Of a DNA stretch of 64,000 nt, positions 24,701-50,000 are shown in pieces. A model generated the notes under the pieces. That model did not search any database. It was not told the origin of the DNA and saw only the letters and a list, made by a program, of their open reading frames with translations. The stretch is from Antedon mediterranea. Its lineage: Eukaryota > Animalia > Echinodermata. Where the stretch lies: positions 28,306,912 to 28,370,911 of the forward strand of contig NC_092675.1 of assembly GCF_964355755.1 (NCBI RefSeq). The letters are read 5' to 3'. The stretch's first letter is position 1. Each line of letters begins with the position of its first letter. A program made the position numbers and the translations under genes.

Positions 24701-26294
24701 TGATAATAATAACCATCATTATTTAAATACCATTACCGAAGTTTGCCTTGGATCCAACAAAGGCAATCTAAGAACAGGACGCTGGGCTCTGACTGAAGAT
24801 CAAATGATTTATTATGTGGCTGCGACACGATCAGTTACACGCTCCTTAGACTATGCACATACCGTAGTACAGTGCTGTTGGTAGTTTCGCAGCAAGACAT
24901 AAAATGTTACGAGTTTCTATTTGTCCTGTTGTTAGATTGTCTTGATCCAACTATGCTTTAAAAACTGTCATAATAGTTGATAATGTTTAATTTCAGGGTT
25001 TAAAAGACGAAAATTATTTCAAACGAAAATACCAGGTAATGTTGTAGTTTACATTTACGATAATACATACAGGCCTATCGAAACGAGAGCGAAATCGAAA
25101 AATACACCTGATATGAATTGATTTTAATTTTGTTTTGTTTTTATAGAAAGTGGTTGGGAAGTTAGTTGAACGATTTGCACACGAAGTTACGGCTGAAGAA
25201 ACGAGTACTGGGGGCGGTGTTTCTAAAAGGGATATACAAAGCATTAAGAGTGACATCATGGCTTTCAGGTGAGTTTTATTTACGAAGGCCCTCGTAAAAG
25301 AAAAAACATTCCGTTTTTACGAAGGCCCTCCTAAAGAAATTCCGTTTCGTTTTATTTGTCTCTCTACACAATACAACCGCACAATATAAATATGCATGAT
25401 AGTAAAAACATTTGAAAGGATATCCTTAAAGCTCTGTCCACACTATCAAACTTTAAGTGACAAAAATTGTGATGTGCCCATATATGGAAATGATGATATC
25501 ATATCACTACCAATATTTAAGCATATCACTACCATATTTGTAAAACTAGTTTGAGAGTGTAGACAGAGCTTTGGAGGACTTGCCTAGGTACACATATGAA
25601 AAGAATGAATAAATGGTATTTGTATATTTATAAATAACAGTAAGATAGATGTATATACCAGTATTTAAGTTATACATAAAATGATCTATAGCTCTTACAT
25701 TTTAAATGTAGGTTTGTAACAGGATGTTTAAATAATCAATGGTGACACAAAAACCTTTTACTAGAATATTGTACATGGTAACTGGTTGTTATTTTTTTCC
25801 TATTATGTTAAGGCAGAAACTATAGAGGCCGTGTATATATCATGAATATTTATGATACCGGCCTACTCATGACGTTTTCTTAATTCTTGTACTGTTACCT
25901 TACTTACTAAAATAACCAGTCTTGTACGGTACATTATCATTACAGATACGAATGCAATAATATGCTGAATTTTCTGAATAAAGAAATGGAAGGAACGACG
26001 AGGCAGACACTGTTGACTAGAGATAAACTTGAAATCACTAAAGACATCAAGTCTAAGGCGGAGGATATTAGAAACAGAGTGGCTGAACACAAACAAGGAT
26101 TCACAGAACTGCATGCAGATCTAACAGAAATTCATAAAGAGATTCAACAGAGTGAACGAACAAAACCACCGCCAAAGCAGCAGCCGTTGAAACGCACAAC
26201 TAGTAGCAGGGTGTCGATGATGTCATCATTCTTTGACACCGCTGATGAGACTGGGGGAAATTTAACTGAAGAAGCAAAAGATTTATTTAAATAG
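18789..26294 (+). CDS. Divergent TRPC-family (canonical/short TRP) cation channel, 14 coding exons, ~888 aa
   Basis: Exons 18789-18948, 19338-19462, 19720-19824, 20193-20492, 20796-20894, 21486-21673, 21862-21995, 22239-22381, 22810-23366, 24033-24231, 24491-24637, 24997-25035, 25147-25268, 25946-26294 (2667 nt, in frame). TRPC motifs: ankyrin IGDALLYAV and TPIIQAALKNNF, YQALAS, LLDQTR, FVAHPNCQ, GPLQISLSGM, pore FYWALFG, LLNALIAMMS, TRP box ADIEWKFSR, LPPPFNLIP, coiled coil IKSDIMAFRYE. Confidence 0.93.
20493..20705 (+). repeat. ~31-bp minisatellite (about 7 copies) starting at the exon-4 splice donor of the TRP gene
   Basis: Unit GTGAGTAGGCCTACAACTTGACATTGATAAA repeated with few substitutions. 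Confidence 0.9.
23410..23541. mobile_element. MITE family B copy in a TRP intron
   Basis: AGCTTTGTTCCCACTTG...TTTGACCAATCACAACG...GATTGGTCAA...AGTGGTAACCAAGCT. Confidence 0.75.
25430..25570. mobile_element. MITE family A full-length copy (reverse orientation) in a TRP intron
   Basis: TAA|AGCTCTGTCCACACTATCAAACT...AGTTTGAGAGTGTAGACAGAGCT|TTG. Confidence 0.85.
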
Positions 26295-27330: not shown

Positions 27331-30164
27331 TAATGGTGGTGAAGGGGTTGTGTAATACGTAGATTAAAATAGTAATTAATACAAGTTGATGATCCAATGT
27401 TTTTTACCTATTTCGATTAACGTATATTGGATCACTTTTATTATGTTAACCGCATTGAATATAATAGCAATAAAGATATTGATGATATTGATGCGTTGAA
27501 TAATGTAGCCATGGGCATTATGAGCAGTAAAACCAGAGGTTCACAATCCCATATATAACAATACCTATGTGTGGAGGTTAACACGGGACAGACATGCGAT
27601 TTACCTTTCTTTTGTATTCAATACACGTATTCTTATGCAAATCACTGGTGTTTATCCATTCGGAAAACCTGGTTTTAAGACCCGATGGTCCATGGATATA
27701 CAATTAATTGTCGACGGTGTTCTCTTCGAAATCTAACAACAAGCATTTCACTGAAAAGTGAAATCCACAGTTTCAGCCTTACAATTTCTACACCTGATCG
27801 AACTGCTCAGTTATCTAAAAGGTGAGATTTCTTTTTAGTTTACCAGTTGTTTTGGGGACATGTGTGTGATTTGTGCAGTGTCATGTCATATGGAACAGGC
27901 ACTGGGTCATGATTTAAATTGTCATACTGTTTAGGCCTATGTATTTATGATAGCAGTGAGTAAAAAAGTCTGCAATTGTGGCGGACTATTGTGATGACAT
28001 TAACTCAAACATTGTAGGCCTACAGTGTATTAAATCCGAAAGAAAACACGTATGTGCTCCCCATATTATGACGTCTGTAAATTGCGTAGTAAACACTATC
28101 TATTAATAACCCCATTATTTTTTTTACCGTACCGTATCCTTAAACCGTAGATTGTTGATTAAATCTTGTATTTATGATAGATTGTTGAACCACAAACATC
28201 TGTCATTGATTGTTTAGCCCTATGGTGGTACTCCTAATCGATATTTATGGACAATAGCTGTGACAGTAATTCACAATCCCTTTTATTAATTATCTATTTG
28301 TTTCTGTAAACCCCGTATGGTTTTCATAGACGGAAATGAGGAGGAACTACCGGGACCCTAATTTAACAATCAGAATATAATGGACTAGGCCTACTACTGT
28401 ACAAAACATAGTTCAGTACTTAGGTATCCACAGCCCCATGTTTTGTGGTCATTTATCACAATCGGGTAAACTGCCTTACTTCAGTAGGCCTATTTCTTTA
28501 GATCTATTTTGTAGTCTATAGGCCTAAAGGAAAATCGCATTGTTCCCTGGTTACGGTATACAAGTAGGCTATAGCACGAACGCACATCCTGCATCGCTGT
28601 TTGTTTCTCATGATAATTACATCGCTCGGATCGAATATCTTAATTCGTTTCAAATTCTATTGTAATTCAAATACCTATTTGTCAATAGTACGGTTACTGA
28701 ACAATAATCACATCTTAAAACAGATACATTCAAATGTACTGTATCTGTATTCATATTCTTGGTGATTCTGTTATCGACAGCTGTATCGAAACGATCAGGT
28801 TATAAATTGATACAAATATTAAAATACTTTGCAGTTTCAATACATAACAAGTGCACGCCTAATGTTTAATATATACAGTACGTACTATTTATGAAGTATA
28901 GAATAGGTAACCAGCTCGATCTTCATAACAAGAGATACCCTTGTTCATAGCATGTTGACGAATACAATAATAATTATTCATTAGATTTGAATGACATGAA
29001 TATTAATTGGATTTGAAGAATAACATGAATATTAATTGGATTCAATACATAGATCACTTAATTATGTATAAGACTCAGATCTCATAAAGATAATAAGCTG
29101 TATTGATGTTTGTTGATTTTACGATGTAAGCCTACATAGCCTGCTTTTCGTTGTGCATGATTATATATCATTAAGCATACCACACAGCTCTGTGGAAACC
29201 ATAGGCCCAGTAGTATACGTTCTATCATCAATGTTGTATTGGTGATAGAACGTGAGAATTTAAGATGTAAGCAGAACGTTCCTATTTTTTAAATACAATT
29301 GACGGTGACTCATAATCACATTTCAGGTTATTATTTTTAGAATAGAATAGAATATAGAAACGAACGTCACCCATGTGTGCTATACAAATAAGTTCATTCT
29401 ATTCTTTCATAACCATTTTGAACAGGTGAAATCAGGCGTTATCCAGGGGGACGTTCTACCGACGCCTCCCCCCGCCTCCCCCACACACTTTGTTTATCCT
29501 ACAGTATATTATATACTGTAATACAATTTTTTTTAAATTTATCTGAATGTTAAAAGTACATGTACCTATACTCTTTTATTGCAAACAAGAATTTATTCTT
29601 TTGTTTATCTACAGTAATATCAAATTACGTAAGGGCAAGTTTCGGTCAATCGAAATCGCAATTACAACTCAAAAGAATGCGTATTACATTAAAATGGAAG
29701 AGATATAGGGGGAGGGATGTCAATCATTCCGTAGGTAATTTACCATTTTTAACAAAAATCACGATTTCAAACATATTGAGAAACCGATTTTCCTGGTAGA
29801 CATGAGTTGACATAACGTTTATTCTGCTACTAATAATAATTATAGTACACTATACCCCCTATATACATACAATGCCGTATACATTTGCACAATAAATCTT
29901 CTACTTAATAGTAACTGGGTTGCAGGTTCGGGTTTATTGTGTAAATAAGTCAAAACCTCATGATATGAATACAATGGCATTTCATGACTCACTCTAGGTA
30001 CACAATACATACAAGATTGAAAGCGAAGTTTATAATATTATACATATAATAAGACTAAATCTGGTATAAAAACGTTATTATGTATTTGCAATAATACATA
30101 TAGGTTGGTTATTGTTAGTTTTCGTCAGAGAAAGTGAGTTGCGAAATTTGTCAAAAGTTGGTTA

Positions 30165-30198: not shown

Positions 30199-31419
30199 AA
30201 ACTCTGTTCGTCGAAGTCTTTTGTTCAACAACTACTATTGCAATTTTCACTTACATTCCCAATTTCCTCGACTCTCTGAATTCTCACTCCTGATGACGAT
30301 CAAATTATATTGATAAAAACGTCGAGAAACTCAACGGTTCTTTTCAGAACTATATAGAAACTATTAAAACAAAAACTATCCCGATTTCAAATGTCTATTT
30401 CTACATTAACAACAGGTTAAATGTATTCCTCAGCAAATCATAAACAGGTAAATATTTGTTTGTCTATTCTACATTAAACCATTTACTCTGCAGACCTGGC
30501 TAATAAATTTAAAACAAACAGATGAAAGAAAATTCTCTGTGCGTGTTCTTTTTCTCTTTAATTATGCCTTGTTCACAACTAAAATGTCATGTATAGGCCT
30601 CCTACCGTACCAGTTGCAAACGGGACAGTATCTTTGTTATCTGTTAGAACACATTAGACAAACGAAATACAATGAATGTAATCAATATTTGTAATTATTA
30701 TTTTGAGTTAAAATAACCTAGTAAACTGATTTCTGGGTTATGCTTTTGTCGACAGTTTAAAGGTTTTTACCATTAACCATGATATTTAGTTATTTTAGCA
30801 CGGGAGCTTAGTATGAAGTTGCCTTTATAATCGGGTTTTATGGACATCCTGGTTTATTGACTAACTCAAAGCAAATCCAATTAGCGAAATAATGCAAGAG
30901 AAGAAAAAATAGAAGATTTGAGAGTTTTATTTTAGGCCATTACTTAAAACAAAACTATAGGAAAGTTAAATACAGTGCTGATGACGTTTCCAGTTTATTC
31001 TGATACAATGGTAATCCTCTACAGTACAGTCTACAATACTCTAAGATATGAAACAATGTTAAATCTTCTTACTTGATATGAAATAAAAAAAAAAGACGAT
31101 CCCAGATAAGACATAAACATCATAAAAATAACTACTGTATAGGCATTAACATTCTTAAACAACTCTTAAGTATCAAATTCAAATTTATTTTACTTTCTTC
31201 TTTCTTATCTCGATGTACCATTTAGGCCTATTGCTGGGAGTGTTTCGTACCATATTTGATGTTTGTAAGATAGTATAGCTTTCGGTTTCTTAAATCACTA
31301 TGTTTTCGTATTTATTCGATTAACATGTTCTTTGTAGGGCGCCATAAAAACTGTTATAGAATAGAACATTACTTTTGTTATTTCTCTTATTAAAGAAGTA
31401 TACCGTATCTTACGATACG

Positions 31420-34400
31420 ATGTACCGACTTATTTTTCACATCGGACTCCTTTGTTGGATGGTAAGACAAAGTCATTCGCAGGCATGTGGTGTCAATGCT
31501 CGACAGGGGATCATAAATGGCGACATAAGTATTGGATTTATTTTCCCATTTTCTGGGCCTAGTGAAGACGGAGTTGGTTGCAACACAACGGTACAGTCTC
31601 CAGATAATATTCAACTAATAGAAGCGGCAATACACATTGTGAATTCTATCAACAGCGACCAGATTCTTCCTGGAATAAGCATTGGTATGTAATATTTATT
31701 TTGCTTTAAAACTTTACACTTCCCTGGTTTTTAGTCAGATGTTTCTAAGAAGTTGGTTCTGTACGGAAAGATCCCTTAATTCTTCTTGCATAAAATTCTG
31801 TGAATTCTAGTATAGAAAAGAATATATATATTTTTTTCAGATCTGATAGACGGTTATACTGACGTACTGATTTTTTTTTATAGTAACGATACCGAAACGT
31901 AATGAATGATTGATTACTACAGTATAGATAGATCTGACGAGTAACGTAATGAATGATTGATTACTACAGTATAGATAGATCTGACGGGTAACGTAATGAA
32001 TGATTGATTACTACAGTATAGATAGATCTGACGAGTAACGTAATGAATGATTGATTACTACAGTATAGATAGATCTGACGAGTAACGTAATGAATGATTG
32101 ATTACTACAGTATAGATAGATCTGACGAGTATTAGGCCTAAATATTTACTTCTTATATTCTTCTATCCTTTGCTCTTAAAGGTTTAGAAGCATGGGACAC
32201 CTGCCATCTTTCAAGTGTGGCAGTAGACAGAAGCATTGCTTATTTAAATGAACAGGTGTCGTACACCAACGATGATGGAACAGCATGTTCTTCAACCAGC
32301 CTTTTGGCAGGTAAGTACTGACAAATGTTGATCATCATTGGCAGCATACACTGTACAAGATCCTTCCCCAAGGTATTTCTTCTACATGCAAAACACCCAG
32401 AACTACCCAGCATAGTCATCGGACACGTTGAAGATAGCCAAAGAAGAGAAGAAGTAGATCAACTGTACTTGTATAGAGAAAGCATTTGGAAACTAGTTTG
32501 TCTCTATGATGCACCATCGTTCGCTAATCTCGCATGGCTAACGAAATGAAGCAATTTTATTACGTCAAAGTTGGCGAAAACTTCTGACCAATAGAAATGA
32601 TAAGCAAACATACTAAAGTTACAAGATAACACGATAATGATACCTTTTTATTCTCGTGTTAGGTATGATTGGGTTGTCGGATAATGGACCAGCAACTGCT
32701 GTGACGTCACTCTTAAACGAGGCAATGGTCCCATTTGTCAGTTATGGGGCGTCTTCATCAAATTTGCAGATGTATGATTACTTTCTAAGGACGGTTCCAT
32801 CAGATTTTATGGATGTGGAGGTAAAACTTTCGACTTCAATTGTCAAGTAAACGATCACGATATGGCATAATTCATTGTATATTTGAACTTAACTTAACAT
32901 TCTTGTAATATAACATGTACAATATGAAATTCTGATGAAAATTAATCATATTTTTGTATTTTAAATTCCTAATTTAATAATTAATATAATTGAAACGAAA
33001 ACTCGTGAGGTGGTTTCCCGAATGATCGTAAAATCAAAACGGTACTGGGTATGACCAACTAACGTTCTTGTCACCAACTAGCCATCCATTCATATAGACG
33101 TACTGATGTTGCAGTCTATCCTACCCAGTTTTGATTTTAAAAATCATTCGGGAAACCACCTCACGACGATCACAATATGTATGTATGTATGTGTCATTCC
33201 ATTTACCGTACTTGTTTACTCGCTTTCAGGTAATAGTCAAAGTACTCGTGGAATTGAGGTGGACCTATGTTTACACCTTCACCTCAGCTGATGAATCGAA
33301 TATGGCAGCAAATGAATACTTCCAAATGTTGGCAAAGAACAACGGAATCTGTGTCAGTGACTCGAAAACTGTTTACACGAACTCGAACGACAGTGACTAC
33401 AATTCAATCATTTCTAGCTTTACAGATGGTGGTCCCAATATCGTAGTATTGTTTTCTTCTACAGCCGATTCTATTAGGCTTTTTCAGACAACTCAGAGTA
33501 TGTCAAAGGGTTTGCAATGGGTCATCGGGCGCGAGATTTTGAAAGATAGTATTGGTTTACAGAAAGACACCATTAACGTAACAAGAGGAATGCTTGGTGT
33601 TGCCCCGAGCGTGCTGAGTTCCAAAGTTGAAGCCTTTCAATCCGTCTTCACTGGTGACAACTCACTCAACAGCCAGGCTGATCCATGGTTCGTGGACTAT
33701 AAACTCTTACAAAAGACGAATGTCACACAAAACATGTTTGTAGCACCGTTACAGAATGCCTTCATGTTGTATGCAAACGCACTCCACAATGCGCAGGCAG
33801 ACCAATGCAGTGGAAACGGAGTTTGCGATACTTTAAGAAACATTTCTCCTAATGATCTTATGGGTTATCTAACCAAAGCAGAGTTTGTCGGGGTTGATGG
33901 ATCAAACGTGTCTTTTAGTAGTAATCGTCAGTTGATGAACCAATCCTACGACGTCTTCAATATTGGGTTTGCTAGTGAAACCCAAAATAAACGTTTTTCG
34001 GTAGGTAAAACAATTCATTCACAACACGGAGACACACATAGTTAAATGAACAATTTTAGAGAAACTCTCAACTAAATATTCATATTATGATTAGCCCGTG
34101 TCTAGGAATTGTGCTTTCATTAAAATCATTCCTGTGGGCCTAGTTATATAGGTATTCACTTATGGTACACTATAAACATCATTGCATATTTTTTTGGTGA
34201 TCTGTGTATAGACACTGACCGATATATTATATTTATTTTTAAATCTTTAGGTTGGAAATCTTACAAATAACAATCTTACATTAGAGAAAGATTCGATTCA
34301 TGTTTGGTGGCAAGGTAAGAAAGAGAGAGTATCCGATGTAAACGCCACGTGTGGTAGTCCGTGTCGAGATCTTGCATGTGGAGAGGCAGAGGATTTAACA

Positions 34401-37400
34401 AAGGTAAGCCATTCTTATTCGTTCAGAAGTAATTTCAATTTAACTTCATACACTTATTCCAATAACTAATATGCATAGTGCCTACACTACAGTGCACAAT
34501 CGAGTGATTGCGAACATTTTATTCGTTCAGAAGTAATTGTAATTTAACTTCTAAATCAAATAACTATTATGCGTAGTGCCTACACTACAATACACAATCG
34601 AGTGATTGCGAACTGAACAGACGATTTATCCATTAGGCGCGAAAATGTTGTAGACCTACTGACGTCAATCTGTTCTTACTTGCAGGTTTATATACCAGGC
34701 AACATTATTCTGGGAGGAATGTTCGGAGTACACGATAATGCGCCGTACCCTTCTTCAGCAGGTTGTGGCAATATAAACAACGAAGGAATCCAACAGTTAG
34801 AAGCTCTATTTTACGGTCTTGATTTATTAAACAGCGACAGTTCAGTACTTCCGAATATTACTGTCGGAATTGATGCTTTTGACACTTGTAACTCTCCTAG
34901 CCGAGCTGGGAACATAGCAATTAAACTTGTCAGTGATGCCGAATTTGGTGGTACCGGTTCTGGACAACGGACAGATGCATCGGGCAATATAGAACATGTT
35001 TATGGGATAATAGGTCCTGGATCTGATGATGAGTGTTCCGAAGTTTTGAAAGTGTCCGGCATTTACGATGTTCCTGATATTTCGTACTCTGCCCAATCAG
35101 CGAGTCTTAGTAATACGTATAATTATCCAGAGTTTGCGCGTACTGTATCCGTGGAAACCATGCCGATTGCCGCCATAATTGAAATTCTGGTAGCAAAAAA
35201 TTGGAATTTTGTGCAGGCAGTTATCACTCCGAGTTCGTACGGCTGGAACTCATACAGTGTTTTATCTCAGCAAGCACCGCCTGTAAGTTCAAATTTCATT
35301 TCTAAAGTTCGTAGTAAAGTTGGGCCTAAGAACCCAAGTTCAGTGGTAAATATCGTTCTACAACCTTGTCTCTTTCTTTGTCTAATGATTTCTTCGCGCC
35401 TTTGATAATGTTTGATTTAATTTAACACATTAAGCTCTATATGCTCAAATATGGTAGTGAAATGCTCAAATATGGTAGTGAAATGCTCAAATATGGTAGT
35501 GAAATGCTCAAATATGGTAGTGAAATGCTCAAATATGGTAGTGAAATGCTCAAATATGGTAGTGAAATGCTCAAATATGGTAGTGAAATGCTCAAATATG
35601 GTAATGATATGACATCATCATGTCTATATATGGGCACCTCAAATTTTGATAGTGTAAGACAGAGCTTTATAAACTTCTGCACATTTGTTATGTTACAGAA
35701 AGGAATTTGTGTGACACAGAGAGTGATGCCTAGCAATGCAGTGTCTATGGATTCTCTTATTGAAGATATGACCCAAGGTGATGCCGCTAATGTAACGATT
35801 CTGTTGACTGAAGAAGGTGACACATACCGGTTCTTAACAGAGATTACAGCCAGAAATTTAAATGGAAAATTCTACATAATTGCAGCAACCAAATGGCCAG
35901 TAAATACTGTTACTAATGACATACAAAATGGACTTAAAGGTACATAACAAAAATGGAACTTTTATCAGTTGGCATAAACGTTTCTAATTGTTACAATTCT
36001 TTATGTTATTATATTCGTTTATTTGTAGTTTATATCTTATCGGATTTATTCTATTTTTCAAAGGTTTAACTGTTGTTAACATGAGAGATCGTGACGTCAC
36101 AGGGTTTAAGCAATATTTCAGCAATCTGAAGCCTTCTACAAACCTTCGCAATCCTTGGTTTAGAGAGTATTGGCAGAATGTATTCAACTGTAGTTTTGAG
36201 GACAACAAACAGATGTGTAATGGTTAGTTATTTTAATTTAACGTACATTATCCCAACATCAACATATACGCCATTGTGTTCATCGTTATCATCATCCAAG
36301 GCATAACAATATTTTGTATACAGTATTTTTAATTTTGCAATATTTTTGTTTTGTCTGTATAGTATTGTTTTATATGTATTTAAATATCTTTCATCTCAAG
36401 TGGCCAAGGAGGACAATTATTATATTACATTTATGCTGATTACAGTTCATTTCCAAAAATAAGACTACTTTTACTTCAATGTTTCAAATAGATTCCATGT
36501 CTTTGAAACCCGCTAATGTCACCAATCCGTACGTTGGTGAAGTGGTTGATAGCTTGTATGCAATGGCGTATGGACTTCACACTCTACAGGGTAACAAGTG
36601 TCCTCTGCAAACGTCTGTATGCTACGACATGACCCAATCCACTGGAAATGAACTATTCCTAAATATGAGAAGTGCTAATTTTGAAAGTAGAAATGAAGAT
36701 AAGAAAATGGTGTATTTTAACTATCAAGGAGATGGCAGTTCTGATTATGACATATTTAACTACCAACAAGTTGGTGGAAACCCATTTGAATATGTTAAGA
36801 TTGGCTCTTATACAATGAGCAAATTAGATATAAATGCAACGTTAGTGAAATATTACGACCAGTCTGGTAGAGAAGCCCCTAACGATGGTAATGCTTGCGT
36901 GGGTACTTGCGACAACTGTGAGGCAGTACAGAAAGAAAAGGTGGCGGAGGTACGAAATGGTGATGTTTGGATCGGAGGTAGGCATGTAATTTTTATATAC
37001 ACTAAGATGAAATAGGCCATAACCCGTTACATCAACCAATTGATAGCAGTTAGGCCTACTAAATTTAATTCGGGTATCCTATATTATGCGATAATTGAAT
37101 TATGATACGAAAGCAGAAACAATTTTTTAAAAGTGTGTGTTAACTGTTTTATTGTTCTATAATGTTGATGATGATTTAATCTCTATATCTTTTGGAATGT
37201 CAATATTATAATCTATTTATTCTTTATACAAAAATGCATAATTCTTTGTTTAGGCCTAATTGAAACATTATGGAGTATACTTCGTGTTGCAGCTATAATT
37301 ATTATTCTAAAGCTCTGTCTAAACACTATAAAACTAGTTTGACAAAGAAAGTGTGATGTGCCCAAATATGGTAGTGATATGACATCATCATGTAAATATA

Positions 37401-40400
37401 TGGGCACATAATTTGTCACATAAAGTTTGATTTTGAGCTTTAAAAAATCATTGTGTTCTGATTTTTAGGATTTTTTGAGCTAAATCAACCTGGCAACGAC
37501 CGTATCAATTGTTTAGACGAACTTCTGCCTTACAATATACAGCATCTAGAAGCGTTTATGTGGGCGATTGATGAAGTCAACAAGAATATATCTATATTAC
37601 CAGATATTAACATAGGAGCCATAGCGTTTGATACATGTGGCCTTCCTGAAAAAGCTCGACGCGACGTGACAAACTTCGTCTCAAAGGCGGTTGAATATCG
37701 CTCAGGCTACCCCAAGGATAGCATACGAGTGACTGGAATTATTGGCGGAGAAACTAGTGATTCGTCCATCGAAATCGCAGACGTTATAACACCGTTAAAC
37801 ATTTCCCAGATAAGCTATGCTGCAACCAGTGAAGTTTTGAATGACGTAAACAAGTACCCGTATTTTATGCGCACCGTTTCTACAGATTCAGACCAGGCAC
37901 GCGCTTTGGTTGATATCATAACAAGCTTCGGTTGGACATACGTTTCTGTATTGTATTCTGATGACGAGTATGGTATAGATATGCTTCGTGAATTCAGTAA
38001 AATTGCTCAAAACTCCGACATATGCATCGCAATGAATCTGAAAATTCAGATAAATTCGACAATAAATGACTTTGACCAAAACGTGAAGACGCTGCTAACA
38101 AACAGGCAGTCAACGATTGCTGTTCTTTTGACGTCTGATATTGATACAAAGCAGATCCTTGATGCTGCACAACGTCAGGACGTCTCCAGCATTCAGTGGT
38201 TAGGAACCGAAACATGGGGATCAAGAGGTTATATTACACAGGCTGCTAGAAATACTTCTCAGCGTGCTATAACAATACAATTTCAAGAGACAGTCGCTAA
38301 AGGATTTAAAGAATACTATACTAATTTGAATCCTTATTATAATACTCGTAATCCATGGTTTAGTCAGTTTTGGATGGACAACTTCCAATGCAATCTAAAT
38401 TTGTGGAATGTAGAGAAAAAGTATGATAGTCAATGTCATTGGGATCTAAAACTTGAAGACGATTACGTGGAAGAAGCAGAAGTTACATACATTGCAAACG
38501 CTGTAAAGGCTTTTGCAATTGGACTTAATAAAACTATGCAAATAGTATGTCCTGACGTCACAAAGTAAGCAATTATTTTAAGTTGTTTTAAACAGTAATT
38601 TCAATGAATGAATGTAACATCATAACTTAACAATCTGTACTATTTTTTTAGCTATGTATGTCAGGCTGTTTACAACAATTCGAATTTGCTTAAAGAAAAC
38701 ATACGGTCTGCACAATTCATTGGATTCGGAGGAAAAGAATTCAGTTTCGACGCAGAAGGAAATGGGCCACCCAAGTATGATATTCTGAACTTTGTTGGCG
38801 ATGCCTATAATATGGTAAGATAAAAACCCGATTCTCTGTATCTCCACATATGACCATATTTGTCTAGTAGAATATCATAGGAAAATTCCGAAATACATCT
38901 CTTGTGTATCACATGTGGTGACGGTATCATGTAATGATAGGTTAGTGGTTAGGTTATGGTCTATGTTAGGCGATACATGTGAAACACATGTGATCCTATA
39001 TCATCGCATTTTCCTAATATACTAGACAAATTTAGATACAGTACCAAGTATCGGCTCTTTGATGAGAACGATGATTATAATGACAAACGAATATTAACCT
39101 ACATAGCAAAGTTGTAATCATTCTTTAAATAGTGTTTATAAATCTGACAACAAAATGCTACAATAGCATTCGAAATCAATAAAACAAAAAAAAATCGGAT
39201 ACCCTTAATTAAAGAGGACACTCTCCACTGTATATGTAAGTTTTAAAATGTATTTGTATTCAAAAATTTGTGATAGATTGGTTCATGGGTTAACGGTACG
39301 TTAACCTGGAATGGAACAGACTGGAAAACAGCAGTTGACAACGTAAAATCTGAATGTGTTGGACGATGCACGGAGTGTACAAGAGATGATGAAATTAAGG
39401 TAGCAAATGTATCGGGAGAGTTGCAGATTCCAGCTTTCTTCTCCATTCATGAGCATGCTAATTACAGTGATTGTGGAGCACTTCGTTATTCTGGTATAAT
39501 AAATCTAGAAGCATTTTTGTATGCGTTGGATGAAATTAACCACAGTGAAACTTTGCTTCCCGGTGTCAAACTCGGTACGAACGCGTTCGATACTTGTATG
39601 ACTAGTTCGCGAGCAGTGCGAGAAGCGTCATCTTTACTTGCAGGACTGCTAGACGTTGGAAGTAATGGTTGGTCATCTGTTGTGGGAATGGTGGGGTCTG
39701 AGACAGATGACATAACTAAAGGCTTAGCAGCAGTATCAAAAGAACATCAATATACACAAGTAAGTTTTTAGGAGAGATTTTTGAAAGAGATTAAAAGAGA
39801 TTTGTTTCTTCATTTTATGTGGAACTTATTGCGGCGTTGGTCTTGTTTAACGCAACACGAAGAAACTGGCTGCTGTTAAACTATTTTATCGTCCTTAAAG
39901 AAGAACTTATTTATACTAAATTAGTGTTATTACATTAGAAACTTTTTATTTTACTAGGTAAGCTATGGAGCATTCTCGAATTCCTTCAACGATTTAGATG
40001 AATACCCGTACCTTCTGCGAGCGTTACCGCCATCTTCTGTTTCAATACAAGTCATAGTGGACATCCTCAAGCTCAATAAATGGAATGGTGTCTTTGTGAT
40101 ATACTCAAATACAATGGAAAACAAAACAAGTAAGTAGCATTATGCAAACAAATAAAGAAGTTCTAGAATTAGGTTGATACGGTGGAAAATTCAATTTCCT
40201 TTTTATTTCATTTATAAAATAAGAAGATTCATTAATAAATAGGCTAGGTCTGCTGGGTACTTTTTTATTTAAAGTGTTTAAAAGTTTGAATTGAGTGAAT
40301 CAATGCAACGTTTGTCTGCCACATACAGTACATACAAATTGTTTATTGAATAATACCCAATTTTTCTTTGTAAAATAGATGTAAACGTATTTACTGAAAC

Positions 40401-43275
40401 TGCCGTAAAAGAGGAAATCTGTATTCAGCAACAGTTGATAGTTCCACGTAATGCAGAAGACAGCGAATATACTGAAATAATAAGTGAGATTGCCGGCGAC
40501 CCAGACTCACCAATAGTAGTGTTACTCTTTACAACGTTAACAGATACAAACAAACTACAGCTTGAAGCGACTAAATCAAAGCGTCACATGACATGGATTG
40601 AAGCAGGAGGTATCGGTAAGAAACCTCTAAAGAAAACTGATGTCAGTAGTGCCGTGTCTGGTAGTTTCTACGTGGCACCGACAGCACCTGGGTCAATCAA
40701 GCGTTTTACGGATTATTTCAATATTTTAGGAAAAAACAACAATCGTAATCCATGGTTCGAAGAGTACTTGGAACAAATTAATGGAGGGTGCGATCCTACT
40801 TCTGGAGTAGCATGTACATCGCCTGCTCAGCTCTCCCTGAACGATGCCGATCAATTAATGGTAGGGGCTATATTTGACAGTGTGTTCGCTATTGCGTACG
40901 GGATAGACTCATTGCTGAAGTCAACATGCAGTGGTGGTGATGGTTCTGGAATATGTGCAGAATTCCTCAATCTAACTCCTGACGACCTTTTCAAAGTAAT
41001 TCAAAAGGTAAATGGTAAAGGTATTACTGGTGGAGATTTGGCATTTACTACTGATGGGTATATGATGAGAGATTTTGATGTATATAACTATCAAGAAAAA
41101 GACGATGATTATTCGTTTGTCAATGTAAGTTTCATTAATTCAATTGTTTGTTGTAATAATATTTCTCTAGTAATCATAGGTAATGGGAAATAAAGAAGGG
41201 TCTAGGAAATATGTCCTTTCAAGCTCCCTCAACCTTACCCAACTTAGAGACATCTTAATTGATATCAACAAACATCTTTTTAACTACTACTTACGTCTAA
41301 ACTGTTCATTTATACTTTAAGTTGACAATATTTTAAACAAAGTAATCTACTAACGAAATGATCTTACGCTTTGTAGGTTGGAACATGGTCTAATAAGAAC
41401 AACTTGATCCTTGATTCTGTTGAGTTTTATGGTGATGACGGAAAGACAACCGAATCACTAACTTCAACGTGTAAAGAACGAGTTGTTACTACTGTAACAT
41501 ATCCACCAAAGATGACGACAGATGAATCCGAAAAGAGCCATAATAGTCAGAAACTCACGTCTGAAAAATCTGTAACGGGTAATTTATATTACGTCATCGT
41601 GTGTCTTTGTCTTGTGGGTATAGCGTTAACATTGGCAACAATGCTATATTTTTTCCTTAAGCGAAAGACCTCATTGGTGTCGAAATATTCCTACAGTCTA
41701 TGTACACTACATCTGATTTCAATCCTTTTCTTGTACATTCTGCCTCTTCTCTTTGGAATTGAAGCTTCTGATTCGGTATGTGCTGTACAACATTTTATTA
41801 TTGGACTGGCTTTCGCTGCACGCACAGCAAGTGCATTGTTGATGTCTATTCGGTTGTACCGCACCGGGAAGCACGAGAGAAGGATTTCTGGCGAGAAAAC
41901 AACCCACACAAACGATAGTAGTCAAACAATATTGTTCTGCTGCCTGATGTTAGTTGAGGTGATGTTGATTGTGGAGTGGGTCGTTATTGAACCTCTGGAG
42001 AAACTCTACGTTACCGGCTCAGACGAGACCTTAAAATGTTTTTACGACATGGATGCTCTGGCGATTTCTTTTATTTACATCTTCGTGATGTTGCTGGTGA
42101 CACTTGGTGTAACAATCTGGGCTAGGATGAAAGTGGATTTGGCATACCATCCCCAGATATTTGGTGTCATGATTTCGACTATCGGTAAGAACTTATTTCT
42201 TAAGTGTTCGGTACCAATAAACTGGTATTTGTATGTATATTGAATTAGATATTTGTCACAAAGACAGCCCATTTCACTTGTGGACACTGAGAAGACTCTG
42301 TTAGCAGACTGAAAGCTAGTACAAATTACATTTTATTTTAACTCACTCAATTTACGAAAAACTATTTTGTTGTTGCTATATTTAAGTGAAGTTACCAATT
42401 CATATATATTCATATCTATTGTTTTCCTTTATTTAAATTAAAACCCCACTTTCTTTTCCAGGAACAATGGTGACGTTCATCATATGGATTCTTGCAGCAA
42501 ATATGACCGACAAAGAAGAAGACATTCCAACTTTCATTAGCTTTGGTGCTATTGTCACAGCGACAATTACTCTTATAGTTATCTTCCCGCCAAAAATTGC
42601 TCATATTTACAAACGATATGATCCAAGGTTTGACGATACTGCCAGCATCCTTTCAAGAAGTTCCTCCGTTACTTCAAATGCAAATCGATACGTGGAACCT
42701 CGTAAGTGTTTTAAGTAAATGTACAGTTATCTTAAGCCCTGTCTACACTATCAAACTTTATAATGTGCACATATATGGACACGATGACATCATATGACTG
42801 CCATATTCGGACACGTACACTTCAAGCTAGTTTGATAGTATAGACAAAGCTTTACAGTAAATTACATACATTTATATTACGGGAGATAATATAACTATTG
42901 ATCGAAACAAGCTGTGCGACTGACTTTTCTCTCGGAGAACATGCGGTAATATTATGTTGCCTCTTCTTATAAATGTTGCTGATTTGCACAACTCAATATA
43001 ACACTATCAAAACAAATACACTCTGCTCTATTTCTAAATATGGACCGTTCTTTCTGTACCTGTGTTATAATGTTATTCTACTAACTTCTCAACCCACTGT
43101 GAACAATATAATGTTCGGCTACTGTACTTTACTTGCTAATTGTAATTAAATTGTTAAATATATGTCTGTTTTTCTTTTTGTAGGCAGCACTAGCGCATCA
43201 AACGTAGTTGTTGAAAACCCAGCTGCTCTTGGTGTTTTGGCTGAAGAAGAAAAGGAGGAAAACACTGGCGTATAA
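31420..43275 (+). CDS. Class C (glutamate-family) GPCR with four tandem Venus-flytrap domains plus 7TM, 17 exons, ~2252 aa
   Basis: Exons 31420-31684, 32182-32310, 32663-32820, 33230-34000, 34251-34403, 34686-35282, 35699-35939, 36064-36222, 36492-36977, 37469-38564, 38652-38814, 39277-39759, 39958-40129, 40379-41124, 41377-42184, 42462-42701, 43184-43275; all GT-AG, 6759 nt, one frame. Signal peptide MYRLIFHIGLLCWMVRQSHS. Four copies of the VFT motifs G(D/N/E)xxIGxxF, LPxIxIGxxAxDTC, xSYxAxS, YxxFxRTV, (RN)PWF. 7TM has the TM3 Cys (SVCAVQ), ECL2 Cys (LKC) and TM7 IFPPKI. Confidence 0.92.
31896..32131. repeat. Minisatellite, 5 x 47 bp, in the first coding intron of the GPCR
   Basis: AACGTAATGAATGATTGATTACTACAGTATAGATAGATCTGACGAGT at 31896, 31943, 31990, 32037 and 32084. 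Confidence 0.95.
33003..33166. mobile_element. Inverted-repeat (MITE-like) element in GPCR intron 3
   Basis: TCGTGAGGTGGTTTCCCGAATGAT..AAAATCAAAAC pairs with GTTTTGATTTT..ATCATTCGGGAAACCACCTCACGA (24-bp perfect outer arm). Confidence 0.75.
34415..34613. repeat. Two-copy ~100-bp tandem duplication in GPCR intron 5
   Basis: TTATTCGTTCAGAAGTAATT...ATGC.TAGTGCCTACACTACA..CACAATCGAGTGATTGCGAAC occurs twice. Confidence 0.85.
35433..35667. mobile_element. MITE family A copy with an internal 21-bp minisatellite (about 8 copies)
   Basis: (ATGCTCAAATATGGTAGTGAA)n at 35441-35603, followed by the family-A tail ATATGACATCATCATG...GATAGTGTAAGACAGAGCT. Confidence 0.9.
37310..37440. mobile_element. MITE family A copy in GPCR intron 9
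   Basis: TAA|AGCTCTGTCTAAACACTATAAAACTAGTTTGACAAAG...GTCACATAAAGTTTGAT..GAGCT|TTA. Confidence 0.85.
38827..39055. mobile_element. Inverted-repeat element, family D copy in GPCR intron 11
   Basis: CCGATTCTCTGTATCTCCACATA...GATACATGTGAAACACATGTGAT...AGATACAGTACCAAGTATCGG; shares blocks with 48898-49088 and 17830-17978. Confidence 0.7.
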
Positions 43276-44514
43276 AAAGTACGCTTAGTTTGCCTACTAC
43301 TGCGGTCGAACCATTCAATCTAGAAATATAAGTTTACGCGTTTGAACGTTTTGCTTATATCCATTCCTCTATATTTATCTTCTGTTTGGATTTTGTATTG
43401 TTTGAAATGGTGATGATTTCAGATATATTTTTTATAACTAAAACGTACTTATAAAGTATTTTGTATGATGATAAATTTCGGAGTTTCTAAAACTAAATAT
43501 GATAAGATATGATGATATTAGATAATTCGTATCATAAAGAATTTTAGTTTTTTAAACAGTTTTTCAAAGTAACGGAGAAGATCCGTTTTGTCGAATTGTG
43601 GAAGTAAAACAAATAATGGCAAGACTCGCTCCCACTAAATGTCAGAGTTTCTCCATTTAAAATATGTGGGAAAAGTCGACATCCTAAAAATATTAAAATA
43701 GATTATACCTTTCAAAATAATGAACGAGAAGAAAATAAATCGTTTTTATTATGAACGTAATTTGTAAACACGTATCTACGTCACTATGGTTTCAACTATG
43801 TGATGGATTAAATAGTTAACGTCTACTAATATAATTTTTACCGGTGAATGGGTTATAGAAAATATATTGTTTATATCTTTAAAAAATTATACTTAAGTAT
43901 AGGCCTACGGTACTTAAAGCATTCCTTACTACAGTACTTTCGAGCTAATACAATATTTTTGAAGTTTTATTATTGTAAATGCTTTATGTAAATTGTAAAC
44001 GTTTAATGTGCCTTGAGCATGACCTTTGGCGCATGACATTTGGTAGAGTTAATACATTATAATACATCGTTATTATTATAAATTTATATTATATGAAAAT
44101 CTTAAATTTTAACAATCATTATATAGCTATTATGATGGTGTAAATGTATTTTTTACGATTTTGTAACATAATGTTTTTTAGTAATGTATTTTGTCACTTT
44201 TACTACAGTTTTAGAATGGTTTCCTAATATGATAAATTGATTACATTTTATGTAGCGTCTGTACAGCAATTTCAACATAGTTGAGACAACTATTGTAAAA
44301 TATAACAACATATATAGTATGGTTTCTTGTACTTTTACTTAAGTGTTATTTGGTGTTAAACCATGACAAGTCGTTATATTGTCGATTAATTTCTCTATCC
44401 CTCTTTAATTATTATGCAACTATGGTATTGCATTATCTTCTTCTTTCGAGTGCTACACTATTACGTCATTTCATGACTGGTACGTCGACTAGCACATTTT
44501 TTAGTGGCAGCTTA

Positions 44515-44719
44515 AGCCTGTTTTCCTGTCGACGTTATTCGACGCTATCGTCGTTGATCGTAACAGTTCAACGACGATCGTTTGAAAACGATCAAGTTGG
44601 AATGATACCGATAGCGAGTACCTTTTCCTGTAAATCGTTAACATTTCAATGTTTACGTAGAAGATTGCCGATTATTGTTTACGATAGCGTCGACTAACGT
44701 CGACAGGAAAACAAAGGCT
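44515..44719. mobile_element. MITE family C (Harbinger-like, TTA TSD)
   Basis: TTA|AGCCTGTTTTCCTGTCGACGTTATTCGACGCTATCGT ... ACGATAGCGTCGACTAACGTCGACAGGAAAACAAAGGCT|TTA; ~36-bp TIR and an exact TTA duplication. Confidence 0.85.
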
Positions 44720-46651
44720 TTAGCGTTCGCTCTCTGGCATGAGTAAACGTATGACGTCATAACACTTCAAAACCAACTTTTATGGAAGTTGGAGAGGACC
44801 GAAATGTGGCTAATATTTGTAAAAACGTCTGAGCTATAGCTCAGGGATTTTTATAAACCACCCAACTTTTGCACTAGACTATAGCAAAATAATACAAATC
44901 GCGAATATAGATAAATGCGCGCATATTTATTGCGTTATCATTATTCTATGGCATCGCAGTACTAACTAAACTTTTAACGAATGAGAAGGTCGACATTTTC
45001 CCTTTCGTAAAAACTCCTGAGCTCAGAAATTTTCAAAATATCACCCAAAAAATGATGTTGTAAGTTTCAATATTATGAATATTCCTTAATATGCGCATGT
45101 ATTGCGTTAACATCTTTTATTGAAATATAAGACATGGAAACATAATAACGATAACATTGAAATGAGGAATTTACTACAAATATTGAAAAATACATATTTT
45201 ATTAACAAATTGACACAAAATCATAGGAACACAAAAAGAATATTATATGTATACCGATATGAAGACGACGGTATTAGTTCATTTTGTAGCAATAATTACA
45301 AATATGACAATCGTGTTTAAATAATGATTAATAAGAAATTAAATGGTTTATAATATTGAATAAAGTTTTTACACGTAAACTCGCACCTGTGTTGGGCTGG
45401 TTTGTTGAAATACGCGATGTACTGGATTCCTACTATTGAAATTCGACAGAGGGAAACTTTGTTAGCTGAGTCACTAATTCCTCGAAAATGTTTGAATTGT
45501 TACCAATGGTTGGCATCTAGAAACGTGGGTTCGAGTCCCACCTTAGACTTACTTGAGTAATTATGGTGTCAAAATATTGATAAAAATATCACCACAGAAT
45601 TTACCCAATGAAGCACAAACATCAATCTATCATTATGTACAATGTATTTCTTCTACAAAACATATTTTCCATACCATCTTCAAGTACTGGCCAGAGTTAG
45701 CCAAACATTCCAGCACCTTTGAGACTGTTTTGAAACACTTTCTAAAAGGAAACCCGTCCACTTTTAAATGAACTTTCTTCCATAACTCAACACACTTTGA
45801 CTTCTTTAACCAAGCACCAATTATTAATATCTTTATATTTGTTATATACCATTGTATAATTAATTAGTAAATATATTTCATGATTATGTTTGAGAAAACT
45901 ATTATATATCCACAATTATAATATTATACTATTAATTAAAAATTTATGCATTTTCAGGAATGCTGTTAGATTAGAGATTTACATTTAAACATATACAAAC
46001 TCGACACTCATTATACACGTTTATATACATATTTACATAAACAATTAGTGGAGTGTATTTACGAGGGAAGAGTTATCACATACTATACATGTAAATAAGG
46101 CAGATAATTATGAGATTTGTAACTTAGATTAAATATTAATAAACCTGTCTTAAACAAATTATTGATTTGAAACCAAGTTAAGATGATTTAACATCAAGAA
46201 AATCATGTTTTGTCAAAAACAATGTGTAACGTTATGTGTATATTGAAAACTAATCATACATGGTTTAATTAGGGAAGAGTGAATTACAATTTCACTCTTC
46301 CCTGATTGAATGCATAGTAATCAATCATTACATATTTAGTACAAAATAGCCCATTGTTACTTAGGTCAGTTATACTACACTATAAAAATAGATCAATATT
46401 CAATGTATTGACAAAATATAATATTCTACAAAAATTAGGTATTATAAATTTATTATAGAAACATAACAATTAAAAATAATATGATTATAATTTATTTATT
46501 TGAATTAATTGCATATTATATATCTAAATCTAATGATTAAAATATATATTTTTTAGATATAGTAATATTCCTTCTCATGCCGTTGCATTGTTTAGTAGAT
46601 CATACTTGGTAGTACAGACTAAAGAGAAACACCACAGACAAAGAAGCCTTA

Positions 46652-47092: not shown

Positions 47093-50000
47093 TCATTTTG
47101 GACCGTATTCTGCATAGAATGTATTCACTCTTTGAAGAAGATGTCGGTTACGTTCATCCGCTGATCTTCTGGCAGATTCCTGTAAACAAAATGATTTTCA
47201 AAATAATTTAATAATAATAATTTAATAATTTTCTCAGCCGAAACGTATACAAACATATTTATTAATACAGTATTCAGTTTTAATACAATTTGTCTTGTCA
47301 TGTTTTCAGCCAAATACATAATATATCTTCTGGACTTGTCTACGATATATCAAACTAGTTTGACAAAAAAAGTGTGATGTGTCCAAATATGGTAGTGATT
47401 TGATGTCATTGTGACCATATATGAGCAAATCACATGTGAGCTTATGGTCAGTATTTTATTGACCTTCAAGCAATAATAAATAAGTTAGTATGAAATTATT
47501 AAATTTATAAATAATATATCCTACCTCATTCAAATATTTTATCTCCAATGCATCATATTTCATTTGCATTTTTGTCGTTTTCTGCTCATATTCTTCTTTT
47601 TGTCTCTTTAATTCCATCTTCAACATCTCTACCTGTTGTTGAAGATGTTCATACGTCAGGGTGTGATCAATCACTGGTGCTACATCCGGAATATTCGCAT
47701 TTATCTCCTGAGGCGGTTTCGGTGGCCGTTCCGGCACTGGGTGAACGTAATTTGGCGGGATACCATTTGAATGAGGTGTAATAGCATCGTTGTATGAAGA
47801 GAACCTTGGTATGTATGCTTCATCATCGATAAGAATTGAGTTGTTACGATTTGGTTTAGCATACTGACCATTAGATTTTGATGATGCAGATATTACCATT
47901 TGATCTACACTTGTAATAACCTCTTGGGTAACTGAAAACATTTCATCAACGCTAGGATTTCTCGTTTTGAATTTCTCCCGTTTCACTACAGGTCCATCGT
48001 CAATATCTATTAATTTACCTTCAGCGACAGTGTTGTAGCTATCCTCGTTGGCTTTTACCTCTTTTATGAGGTCTAAATGCACGTTTGTGGGCGGGTTCTT
48101 TTTTCGTGGAGGCGCTACGGGAATGTTTGTTTGACGGTATGGTTGAATTGGTACCAATTTCTGTAAAGCTGGAGCAGTGTTTACATTAAAATCTATCATA
48201 TCATTCGGTGGGAACATCTCTTTATGTTTTTCTATAATTAAATGCACAAACTGTTGACTAAGTGATGTAGACTGCATCAACGATGCTGGACTATCTGTGT
48301 TTGGCCGAATAATATTTGGTCCGAAAACTGTAGCGATGTTTTGGACAGTCATTTTATTTTTATCTTCATGTAATGATACGTTATGTAGAAAAATACACAT
48401 GTACCGCAAAAGGTTGTAGTTAGTACGTGGCAAAAGAGCCAGTTGCTTTATAAGTTCTTTTTTGCCCTTTTCGGAATTCTGCAGGAAAAGTTTAATACCG
48501 TTCATGATGTCATCATAATGTGCCCACGGTATAACTGGTTCCGGTAACTCACGTAGATACAGTTTTAATAGAGATGCGACTGTATGTATATCAACATGTT
48601 GTTTGTCAAAATCTGGCTTATCTCCACAATCAAATGAATCCTGCAGTGTTTTGATCATGCTTGACCGACCTGGCAACCTATTAACAAAAGCAACAACAAT
48701 AATTAAAATAAATATAAATATGTAACAAAAATTTAGAATTTCATCTTTGATTAAATTAACTTTTTCACACAGGATAAAATATAGCCTCCCCTTGGGGCTT
48801 CTGCTACTCATCCTATTTTTGAGACAGCGATTTTGTTTAAATTAACGAAATCTTGTGAAATGTCCTTTTAAGAACATTTCTCAAGATTTAAAAATCACCC
48901 GATTCCCAGGGCTGTATCTCCACATACTATATATTTTCTAAGTAACAAAGGAACAGTTGATGTGGTAGCTGCCAGTATCATATAAGGTCAGAGGTTAAAG
49001 ATTACTACTAGATACATGTGAAACACATGTGATGTATTAGCAAATATTCCTGTGATACTGAAGAAATAGATACAGTATCGAGAATCGTCTGTTTAACTAC
49101 AGTATAAGGAAATTGAAAACATTTTTGACTCACTGCTATGTTTTTCACAATACTACAGTCTCTCAATACAGTCTCTTAATATACTATAGTATGTAAAAGA
49201 ATAGTAAAAGCTACCTGAATATGCCTTCTTCAAGGAGTCCATTTTCTACTATGTAATTAACACACTGCTCTACTATTGATGGTATCATCTTGGTAGACGT
49301 TGTACTTTCATTGGTTATAATGTCCAGTAGACTTTGGCCAAACACACCTTATTAAAACAATTAAAAATCAAATCATTTTAAACTTTGAATAGATAGGCAC
49401 GGCAAGAAAATTTCTCAAACGAAAATGAAAATGTTTTAGGGTAGAATTATACATGTCTTAACATGCATAAAATTGCAATATATTTGTATTTAATTTTTAA
49501 TGATATTCGGAAATTAAATGAGGGTGGCTTATCCAGTAAAGGAACTGATCATTAAGGGCCCTTGATAAAACATATAGGACTAGTACTAGTACATCACAGT
49601 CACTGATCATCAACTGGGCCCTCTGGGAGACCAGTCTTTGACTGAAGAGGTCGCCCAGTATAAATATAAATAAATAAAGGATATTCATAACAAAAGCATT
49701 AAATCTCTACATTAAAAATTATAATAATTTTAAATTGTTGACGGATACAAAATATAGAAAAAATTTTACTTATCTAGAAATAAATCATTTAAGTTGGATT
49801 GTGAAGGAGTTAAATGGCAACAGAAAGTTTTATGTTAACAATATGGATTTTGGTAAAATACATCTAAGCTAACTAAACAATTGTTTTCTTTCTTTTATTT
49901 AATTTGTCACACTTTAAATACAAATGTTTGTATTAGTAAGCAGGTATCAGAGAAATAATAAATGTAGTAATCAAATTAATTATAAATAGAGATAAAAAAA

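Follow-up and report, generated by a model that had tools for sequence, protein, structure and literature searches.

A single gene on the forward strand of the window (the whole 64,000-nt stretch of Antedon mediterranea DNA that was analysed) encodes a class C receptor with four tandem Venus-flytrap (VFT) domains on one seven-transmembrane domain (7TM), and both the gene and this four-flytrap architecture are virtually certain. The receptor belongs to an old and apparently undescribed bilaterian family of multi-VFT class C receptors with 2-5 flytraps. Because VFT3 alone has the pocket and VFT2 alone the pairing surface, the flytraps likely divide the work between them. The features of the gene are listed below, with the pocket (of 5) and dimer-patch (of 4) scores described later in the text.

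27788..27821 (+): 3' end of a first exon without coding sequence, with donor GT at 27822, spliced to 31396
31420..31479 (+): start codon, opening a likely signal peptide (aa 1-20, judged by hydropathy only)
31507..34319 (+): VFT1, aa 30-464, coding exons 1-5; pocket 1/5; putative distal cap module, grouping with the first modules of protostome relatives
34350..34403 (+): linker 1 (C475, C479, C484), a three-cysteine stub of a cysteine-rich domain, ending at the 34403>34686 splice
34686..36868 (+): VFT2, aa 493-950, exons 6-9; pocket 1/5; the only module with the full hydrophobic LB1 dimer patch (I571, V615, I618, Y619)
36896..36946 (+): linker 2 (C960, C964, C967), within exon 9
36947..39345 (+): VFT3, aa 977-1429, exons 9-12; backbone pocket intact (S1083, T1106, D1126, Y1154, E1234)
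39355..39402 (+): linker 3 (C1433, C1437, C1440), within exon 12
39403..41442 (+): VFT4, aa 1449-1895, exons 12-15; pocket 0/5, dimer patch 1/4; likely spacer
41470..41568 (+): stalk, aa 1905-1937, Ser/Thr/Pro-rich with one cysteine; 9-94 aa among orthologues
41569..42607 (+): class C 7TM, aa 1938-2191, from exons 15-16; M2029 in place of K3.50, R3.53 retained, 6.35 not acidic
42608..43275 (+): cytoplasmic tail, aa 2192-2252, exons 16-17 with the stop codon, from the spliced model

The earlier note had joined 17 GT-AG exons into one frame of about 2252 aa with one signal peptide, one 7TM, and two flytrap junctions inside single exons, and all of these points were confirmed, the signal peptide as a likely one. 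When the gene was built from GT-AG sites within 31201-44700, the same 17 coding exons at 31420-43275 (+) were obtained, with 16 of 16 introns GT-AG and a coding sequence of 6759 nt, which translates in frame to 2252 aa with a single terminal stop. The spliced model showed no difference in any of 2252 residues from P0204, a database entry under the name 'uncharacterized protein [Antedon mediterranea]'; the gene model is therefore already public, without a name. Pfam analysis of P0204 revealed four ANF_receptor stretches and 7tm_3 at 102.6 bits (cut-off 33.5), and the 16 exon translations analysed separately gave four passes through ANF_receptor, then 7tm_3. No NCD3G was detected by Pfam on the whole 2252-aa protein. 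Hydropathy analysis showed one hydrophobic N-terminal leader and seven transmembrane segments at aa 1938-2191, and no leader-like run was found before VFT2-4 (peak hydropathy of 1.51, 0.82, and 0.95, respectively, versus 2.14 for the N-terminal leader). The VFT2/3 and VFT3/4 junctions are located inside exons 9 and 12, respectively. Shared intron positions were considered as a trace of module duplication and rejected, as one phase-0 intron is common to VFT1, VFT3, and VFT4, and the other introns lie at differing positions.

Splicing was assessed in X1, a sequencing run that is RNA by a software guess only; none of the five runs with this stretch is recorded as RNA. One spliced X1 contig of 7065 nt carried all 17 coding exons, which places the four VFTs and the class C 7TM in one gene as previously proposed; X1 represents one sample of one study, and its short-read contigs are not proof of a single molecule. 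Introns 1-5 appeared in X1 as GT..AG skips of 497, 352, 409, 250, and 282 nt, exactly the predicted lengths, and the last of these bears out the 34403>34686 junction predicted by the earlier note in what is presumed to be RNA. Depth was zero across most bins of introns 1-5, including that intron. In the DNA-like run X4, introns 4 and 5 were read through unspliced in one contig and the X1 skips were absent; the DNA-like runs X2-X5 come from one sample, possibly the source of the window, and so are not independent. Introns 6, 9, and 14 were directly bridged in X1 (by a loose end or adjacent record coordinates), and the remaining 8 introns were derived by arithmetic from record coordinates, with every listed X1 piece at CDS position +28. 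In addition, X1 revealed the non-coding first exon, which ends at 27821 and is spliced to 31396: the loose end before 31392 matched the window once, at 27788..27821, with 0 matches in 100 shuffles. The contig runs about 278 nt past the stop codon into the 3' UTR. An additional low-depth unspliced contig upstream of the start was observed in X1, indicating that this run contains some DNA or pre-mRNA.

In an AlphaFold2 model of the VFT3-VFT4 stretch of Anneissia, both flytraps were well folded (pLDDT 86.8). The pTM was 0.56 and the linker pLDDT 47-70, from a 36-row alignment with some rows misaligned, and thus no fixed VFT3-VFT4 arrangement was found. Foldseek with this model returned mGlu1-8 domains, those of mGlu3 and mGlu5 among them, with a TM-score of up to 0.91 over the mGluR domain. 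Exon 15 folded from its single sequence was uninformative (pLDDT 54).

When 1.84 billion representatives were searched with exon 10, 5695 matches were obtained at E 0.001, and the best 150 of these include many multi-VFT proteins, in line with the uncharacterised relatives that the earlier note had suspected in other invertebrates. Of 19 long matches scanned, 14 had 3-5 ANF_receptor stretches with a single 7tm_3 and lacked NCD3G. The other five had NCD3G within arrays of partial VFTs, and the three that were looked up bear the label Polypterus 'CASR, partial'; such NCD3G-bearing arrays are likely fused V2R-type models and were excluded from the family rows. A previous homologue search limited to 638-2000 aa, and blind to 2250-aa proteins, had given 2 single-VFT matches. 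The family is represented in echinoderms, hemichordates, amphioxus, molluscs, nemerteans, chelicerates, crustaceans, and several insect orders (source labels Anneissia, Saccoglossus, Ptychodera, Branchiostoma, Tubulanus, Argopecten, Babylonia, Limulus, Centruroides, Procambarus, Schistocerca, and Anabrus; further members from Glandiceps, Acanthaster, Amphiura, Diadema, Lytechinus, Holothuria, Lineus, Mytilus, Penaeus, a cockroach, and thrips), and no member was present among the vertebrate matches examined. The database entries seen call these proteins 'uncharacterized', 'hypothetical', or 'mGluR-like', or name them after a generic domain. The relatives, including XP_033109263.1, XP_002735016.2, XP_035691717.1, XP_074641006.1, and XP_067137488.1, have 2-5 VFTs, three-cysteine linkers, and one 7tm_3, with five VFTs in spiralians, four in arthropods, and two or three in amphioxus. 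The four-module order is common to 11 colinear echinoderm and hemichordate orthologues. The features that define the family, namely at least two VFTs, short three-cysteine linkers, one 7tm_3, no NCD3G, and a 7TM in one clade, are all present in the Antedon gene.

In a 48-row 7TM tree, 32 multi-VFT rows fell on one side and 16 others on the other with SH-aLRT 100, and the same division, for 30 multi-VFT rows, was recovered in a 62-row tree under a mixture model; both trees were quick searches without bootstrap. The 7TMs of the family stood apart from those of mGluR and V2R in trees where 'mGluR' labels on unnamed rows were assigned here from architecture and pocket, V2R-type rows alone stand for the CaSR/GPRC6A/T1R/V2R clade, and GABA-B, GPR158, CaSR, T1R, and named class IV rows are absent. 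The 11 four-module ambulacrarian proteins clustered within the multi-VFT clade (85), hemichordates beside echinoderms, and a clade of three-VFT echinoderm paralogues (P0081, P0134, and P0039) was their sister. In a tree of 151 modules, retained after those covering <300 profile positions were dropped, VFT1, 2, 3, and 4 each grouped with the same-numbered hemichordate module (0.96, 1.0, 1.0, and 1.0, respectively). Protostome first modules joined VFT1 (0.99), and the inner modules of spiralians (0.99) and arthropods (1.0) formed separate groups. These patterns suggest that a multi-module ancestor existed in early bilaterians and that module number then changed independently from lineage to lineage, the inner modules having multiplied anew in each.

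No description of a multi-VFT class C architecture was found in literature searches outside subscription journals. The accessible part of PMC12716839 gives single-ANF architectures for metazoans and one of its supplements gave no match, and the accession and gene id of the Saccoglossus orthologue were not found in 12 supplements of PMC6307864. Drosophila CG32447 is listed simply as a class C GPCR in the available portions of PMC1192796 and PMC6829134; no fly protein was present among the 9 insect matches (search range 1307-4160 aa). What appears to be new here is the deuterostome four-module form, together with the evidence for separate module jobs.

The pocket of each module was scored at five backbone-binding positions mapped from the VFT3 alignment to mGlu3, which we take to be S151, T174, D194, Y222, and D301. 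Amino-acid pocket residues given in the accessible part of PMC4977154 are S147, S170, Y218, and E297 of CaSR and S165 of mGluR. VFT1-4 of this gene scored 1, 1, 5, and 0 of 5, respectively, and 15 of 16 single-VFT controls scored 5/5. The VFT3 pocket was complete in 8 of 11 ambulacrarian orthologues and 4/5 in the other three (T>S twice, Y>F once), and those of VFT1, VFT2, and VFT4 were 0-3 of 5 in all 11. Over the same orthologues, the mean identity of VFT3 was 44.7% versus 31.8, 36.4, and 31.9% for VFT1, VFT2, and VFT4, with 61 invariant columns versus 24-30 in the other modules. The glutamate-specific Arg and Lys are replaced in VFT3 by H1012 and E1324, and neither residue is found in any of the four modules; across the orthologues, the Arg site of VFT3 is lost in 11/11 and its Lys site is Glu in 8/11. 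The acidic residue at the mGluR Lys site suggests that the side chain of the VFT3 ligand may be neutral or basic.

The earlier note had also considered that the receptor may integrate several ligands or relay ligand to the membrane-proximal module. For this gene, neither several amino-acid ligands nor such a relay is supported by the pocket scores of VFT1, 2, and 4, the last being the membrane-proximal module at 0/5, and the pattern holds across the 11 orthologues. Multi-ligand sensing would fit some relatives better, such as that of Tubulanus, whose five modules scored 5, 5, 5, 5, and 4 of 5. Arthropod members scored 0-3 of 5 in every module, and amino-acid sensing is thus not universal across the family.

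The pairing surface was scored at four sites on helices B and C where mGluR-type dimers have hydrophobic residues. These sites presumably correspond to L112, L156, L159, and F160 of CaSR (PMC4977154, accessible part). The patch was 4/4 in 14 of 16 single-VFT receptors but in only 3 of 131 multi-VFT modules (131 of 135 being gap-free at the sites), all of them ambulacrarian VFT2. The mean patch scores of VFT1-4 over the 11 orthologues were 2.0, 3.45, 1.73, and 1.91, respectively. The VFT2 patch was weaker in two sea urchins and Holothuria (2-3 of 4) and absent in protostome relatives, and no module of the three-VFT echinoderm paralogues had the full patch. An initial five-site version gave 3, 3, 2, and 1 for VFT1-4 of this gene without setting VFT2 apart, and the outcome thus depends on which sites are chosen; as the sites were cut to four to match the presumed CaSR positions, the VFT2 result is post hoc.

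Each module ends with S/T-x-C and two further cysteines, comprising a truncated start of the cysteine-rich domain; linkers 1-3 of this gene have 3, 3, and 3 cysteines and the stalk has 1. An LB2 cysteine was present in 139 of 151 modules. Among the 127 modules with a scorable linker, which are related sequences and not independent, the linker-cysteine count was odd in 110 of 116 with the LB2 cysteine and even in 10 of 11 without it. Eight of those 11 are VFT3 modules of the arthropod clade, where the loss was probably one event. This parity fits an LB2-to-linker disulfide like the C236-C561 bond that fixes LB2 to the cysteine-rich domain in CaSR (PMC4977154, accessible part). In 31 ambulacrarian links, the next module began 16-24 aa after the first linker cysteine. 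The stalk between the last module and TM1 was 9-94 aa with 45% Ser/Thr/Pro, versus 62-65 aa in 11 single-VFT controls, and one orthologue gave a weak Pfam Mucin match below the cut-off.

The 7TM was the least conserved part of the protein, with 29.6% mean identity and 11 invariant columns over the 11 orthologues. C2008 and C2094 align with the mGluR-type TM3-ECL2 cysteines, C2094 being invariant in a 25-row alignment, and may form the corresponding disulfide. The ionic lock K3.50-D/E6.35, which is usual but not universal in class C, is absent, with M2029 at 3.50 and a non-acidic residue at 6.35. Position 3.50 is Met, Gln, or Leu in 9/9 echinoderm proteins and Lys in 2/2 hemichordate proteins. 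R3.53 is kept in 11/11 orthologues and the ICL2 motif R-x-I-S/T/A-G in most. According to the accessible part of PMC11621567, class C receptors as a rule have the lock, and GPR156, which does not, shows constitutive activity; GPR156 misses the 6.35 residue and retains K3.50, and K3.50 replacement with Glu strongly altered its basal activity. The loss of K3.50 here could thus also mean poor coupling.

The mechanism we favour, tentatively and with somewhat less than even confidence, is a homodimer held at VFT2 that would sense a non-glutamate L-amino acid or amino-acid-like molecule at VFT3 and signal by proximity. All of its steps rest on residue patterns. VFT2 would pair with VFT2 of a second chain via the mGluR-type helix B/C patch, and VFT3 would close on a ligand bearing a free alpha-amino-acid group. 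If an LB2-to-linker disulfide pins every module to its own linker, VFT4 would be shifted when VFT3 closes. The role predicted for VFT1 and VFT4 is that of structural spacers. Because the stalk appears too variable for a rigid lever, the signal would reach the membrane via the changed closeness of the two 7TMs. These, having no ionic lock, would likely be basally active, and the ligand would turn the activity up or down. Against this mechanism, the floppy stalk fits poorly with any coupling of VFT3 to the 7TM. A broader proposal, which we hold with more reserve, is that an undescribed pan-bilaterian class C subfamily is built of 'flytrap + three-cysteine stub' units, which in ambulacrarians would have been fixed since the common ancestor as cap, dimeriser, amino-acid sensor, and spacer. 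In this subfamily, a floppy mucin-like stalk would lead to a lock-free 7TM, with activation unlike the rigid VFT-CRD lever.

Alternatively, the ectodomain may serve mainly as a long tether to a protein of the matrix or of another cell, with the lock-free 7TM on by default and tuned by contact or force and the VFT3 ligand a mere modulator. The mucin-like stalk of such variable length, the loss of K3.50 in all nine echinoderm proteins, 31 N-glycosylation sequons, and the four modules that arthropod members retain despite degenerate pockets are consistent with it, as is the default-on state held by the tandem VFTs of BvgS (PMC4352136, accessible part). The tether or mechanosensor idea of the earlier note finds some support in the variable Ser/Thr/Pro-rich stalk and the lost lock. 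However, the strict pocket and top conservation of VFT3 speak for a small ligand, and Pfam detected no Ig, cadherin, EGF, or GAIN domain; this alternative appears unlikely.

It is quite improbable that the receptor is an integrator that sums the inputs of separate ligands, one for each module (in VFT1, 2, and 4 these would be, e.g., ions or metabolites other than amino acids). The four modules are all full-length, and amino-acid changes are depleted among the 26 coding variants listed (16 synonymous and 10 non-synonymous; pN/pS 0.18). The pockets retained in all five Tubulanus modules and the acidic residues frequent in the VFT2 and VFT4 clefts of the orthologues also agree with this reading. 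A dedicated second site should nevertheless be conserved, and in the 11 orthologues the residues in the clefts of VFT1, 2, and 4 show no constraint, except for the VFT1 Asp at the D194-equivalent site (11/11).

GABA-B1 is the ligand-binding, poorly coupling half of a heterodimer. A similar role for this receptor, with a partner such as the echinoderm three-flytrap paralogue, is about as improbable as the integrator. The weakly conserved 7TM, the lost K3.50, and the sister three-VFT clade in echinoderms would suit such a role, but most orthologues retain R3.53 and the ICL2 motif, and the paralogue modules lack the full dimer patch. Finally, an artefact in which adjacent receptor genes or fragments were fused into one model is practically negligible, for although such fusions exist, as in the five NCD3G-containing arrays, it is refuted at the contig level by the single spliced contig covering all exons and opposed by the two module junctions inside exons, the 11 colinear orthologues, and the mere 23-28% identity among the four modules.

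In the accepted picture of class C activation, each chain carries one flytrap, the flytraps dimerise, and a rigid link connects them to the membrane. The four-flytrap receptor keeps the class C parts, spreads them over modules, and drops the rigid link, and thus offers a natural test of the requirements for signalling. The residue map provides one pocket (VFT3) and one patch (VFT2) as experimental targets for the favoured VFT2/VFT3 mechanism.

Among known systems, the bacterial sensor kinases BvgS and EvgS also have tandem VFTs with different roles over one signalling unit (PMC4352136, accessible part), but they are histidine kinases with two VFTs and the likeness is analogy only. GPR156 and GABA-B share with this gene a class C 7TM without NCD3G, and GPR156 also the lock-free state accompanied by constitutive activity (PMC11621567, accessible part); however, GPR156 has no large ectodomain and loses 6.35 instead of 3.50, and the 7TM match to GABA-B2 is weak (E 0.013). 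The amino-acid pocket of CaSR, GPRC6A, T1R, and V2R is broad and includes Ser, Thr/Ser, Tyr, and Glu, and VFT3 likewise has Glu at the last site. These receptors differ in having one VFT with NCD3G; the VFT3 match to CaSR is weaker (E 5e-36 versus 3e-61 for mGlu3), and V2R-type 7TMs lie outside the multi-VFT clade. In class IV mGluRs, the Arg78/Lys409 equivalents are replaced and the fly member is unresponsive to glutamate (PMC6307864, accessible part). Similar to these receptors, including Drosophila mXR, the backbone residues are kept and Arg/Lys replaced here, but in VFT3 only. Class IV receptors are sisters of classes I-III with a single VFT plus CRD, unlike the four VFTs and separate 7TM clade here, and in the accessible domain table of PMC6307864 each protein is given a single column for the VFD and another for the CRD. 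The closest likeness by sequence match was to mGluRs of groups I-III: the best PDB match of VFT3 was mGlu3 (2e4u; E 2.7e-61), mGlu7 being 2e4z, and that of the 7TM was mGlu1 (E 1.7e-06). Like these mGluRs, this gene has the flytrap fold and keeps the LB2 cysteine together with the beginning of the cysteine-rich domain. In contrast to the one VFT and NCD3G of these mGluRs, it comprises four VFTs and no nine-cysteine domain, with neither the glutamate Arg/Lys nor the ionic-lock Lys, a variable stalk, and a 7TM in a separate clade.

The receptor, a class C GPCR gene with four Venus flytrap modules (VFTs; Pfam ANF_receptor) on one 7tm_3 domain, lies in the window with the following neighboring genes and repeats.

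3762-4987, minus strand, exons of a D-isomer 2-hydroxyacid dehydrogenase
13547-15430, minus strand, open frame of 628 codons with basic and acidic low-complexity stretches
20193-26291, plus strand, fragments of a TRPC-type channel gene (TRP_2, weak Ion_trans), directly upstream of the receptor's first exon
47459-54422, minus strand, PH and RhoGAP gene, convergent with the receptor's 3' end
31896-32131, intronic tandem repeat, period 47, 5 copies
34410-34613, intronic tandem repeat, period 98, 2 copies
35441-35603, intronic tandem repeat, period 21, 7.8 copies
about 33000-33170, 35560-35650, 37340-37430, 42730-42830 and 44500-45000, short high-copy dispersed repeats in the introns and downstream

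The 628-codon frame gave no Pfam match. The period-21 repeat prolongs the frame of receptor exon 7 upstream and is not spliced in, and the summed contig depth over the short dispersed repeats ranged from thousands to hundreds of thousands. At 43550-44540, contigs with a depth of 322-1086 from X1, a one-sample sequencing run guessed to be RNA, extended beyond the 7065-nt receptor contig; they may come from an extended 3' UTR or from the final part of the opposite-strand gene.

Among the database proteins compared with the receptor, a second family was observed (P0049, P0068, P0070, P0072, P0097, P0100, P0044, P0045, P0116, P0117, and P0135). These 11 proteins comprise two VFTs of the three-cysteine type, as in the receptor, followed by a single TM helix, after which comes a long tail of low complexity, and 7tm_3 was absent from all of them. 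The source was molluscan for those members looked up. Most of their modules retained 3-5 of the five pocket residues, and in the module tree their first modules clustered with VFT1 of the 7TM multi-VFT family.

The 7tm_3 protein P0102/P0190 (ENA, Logan) has three VFTs, and its 7TM was placed on a long branch outside the bilaterian clade of multi-VFT receptors; this architecture perhaps had a separate origin. In P0079, a protist protein labeled Rhodelphis marinus, ANF_receptor occurred four times, together with a weak match of the ephrin-receptor-like type.

In the arthropod members (P0020, P0021, P0164, P0031, P0034, and P0037), the pocket was degenerate in every module, and the VFT3 modules had two linker cysteines, not three, and were missing the LB2 cysteine, the presumed linker disulfide partner.

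Paralogues with three VFTs in echinoderms and two in amphioxus were also found (P0081, P0134, P0039, P0028, and P0043). Most are named 'mGluR3-like' or 'mGluR8-like' in the database; however, unlike mGluR, the paralogues have no nine-cysteine domain (NCD3G).
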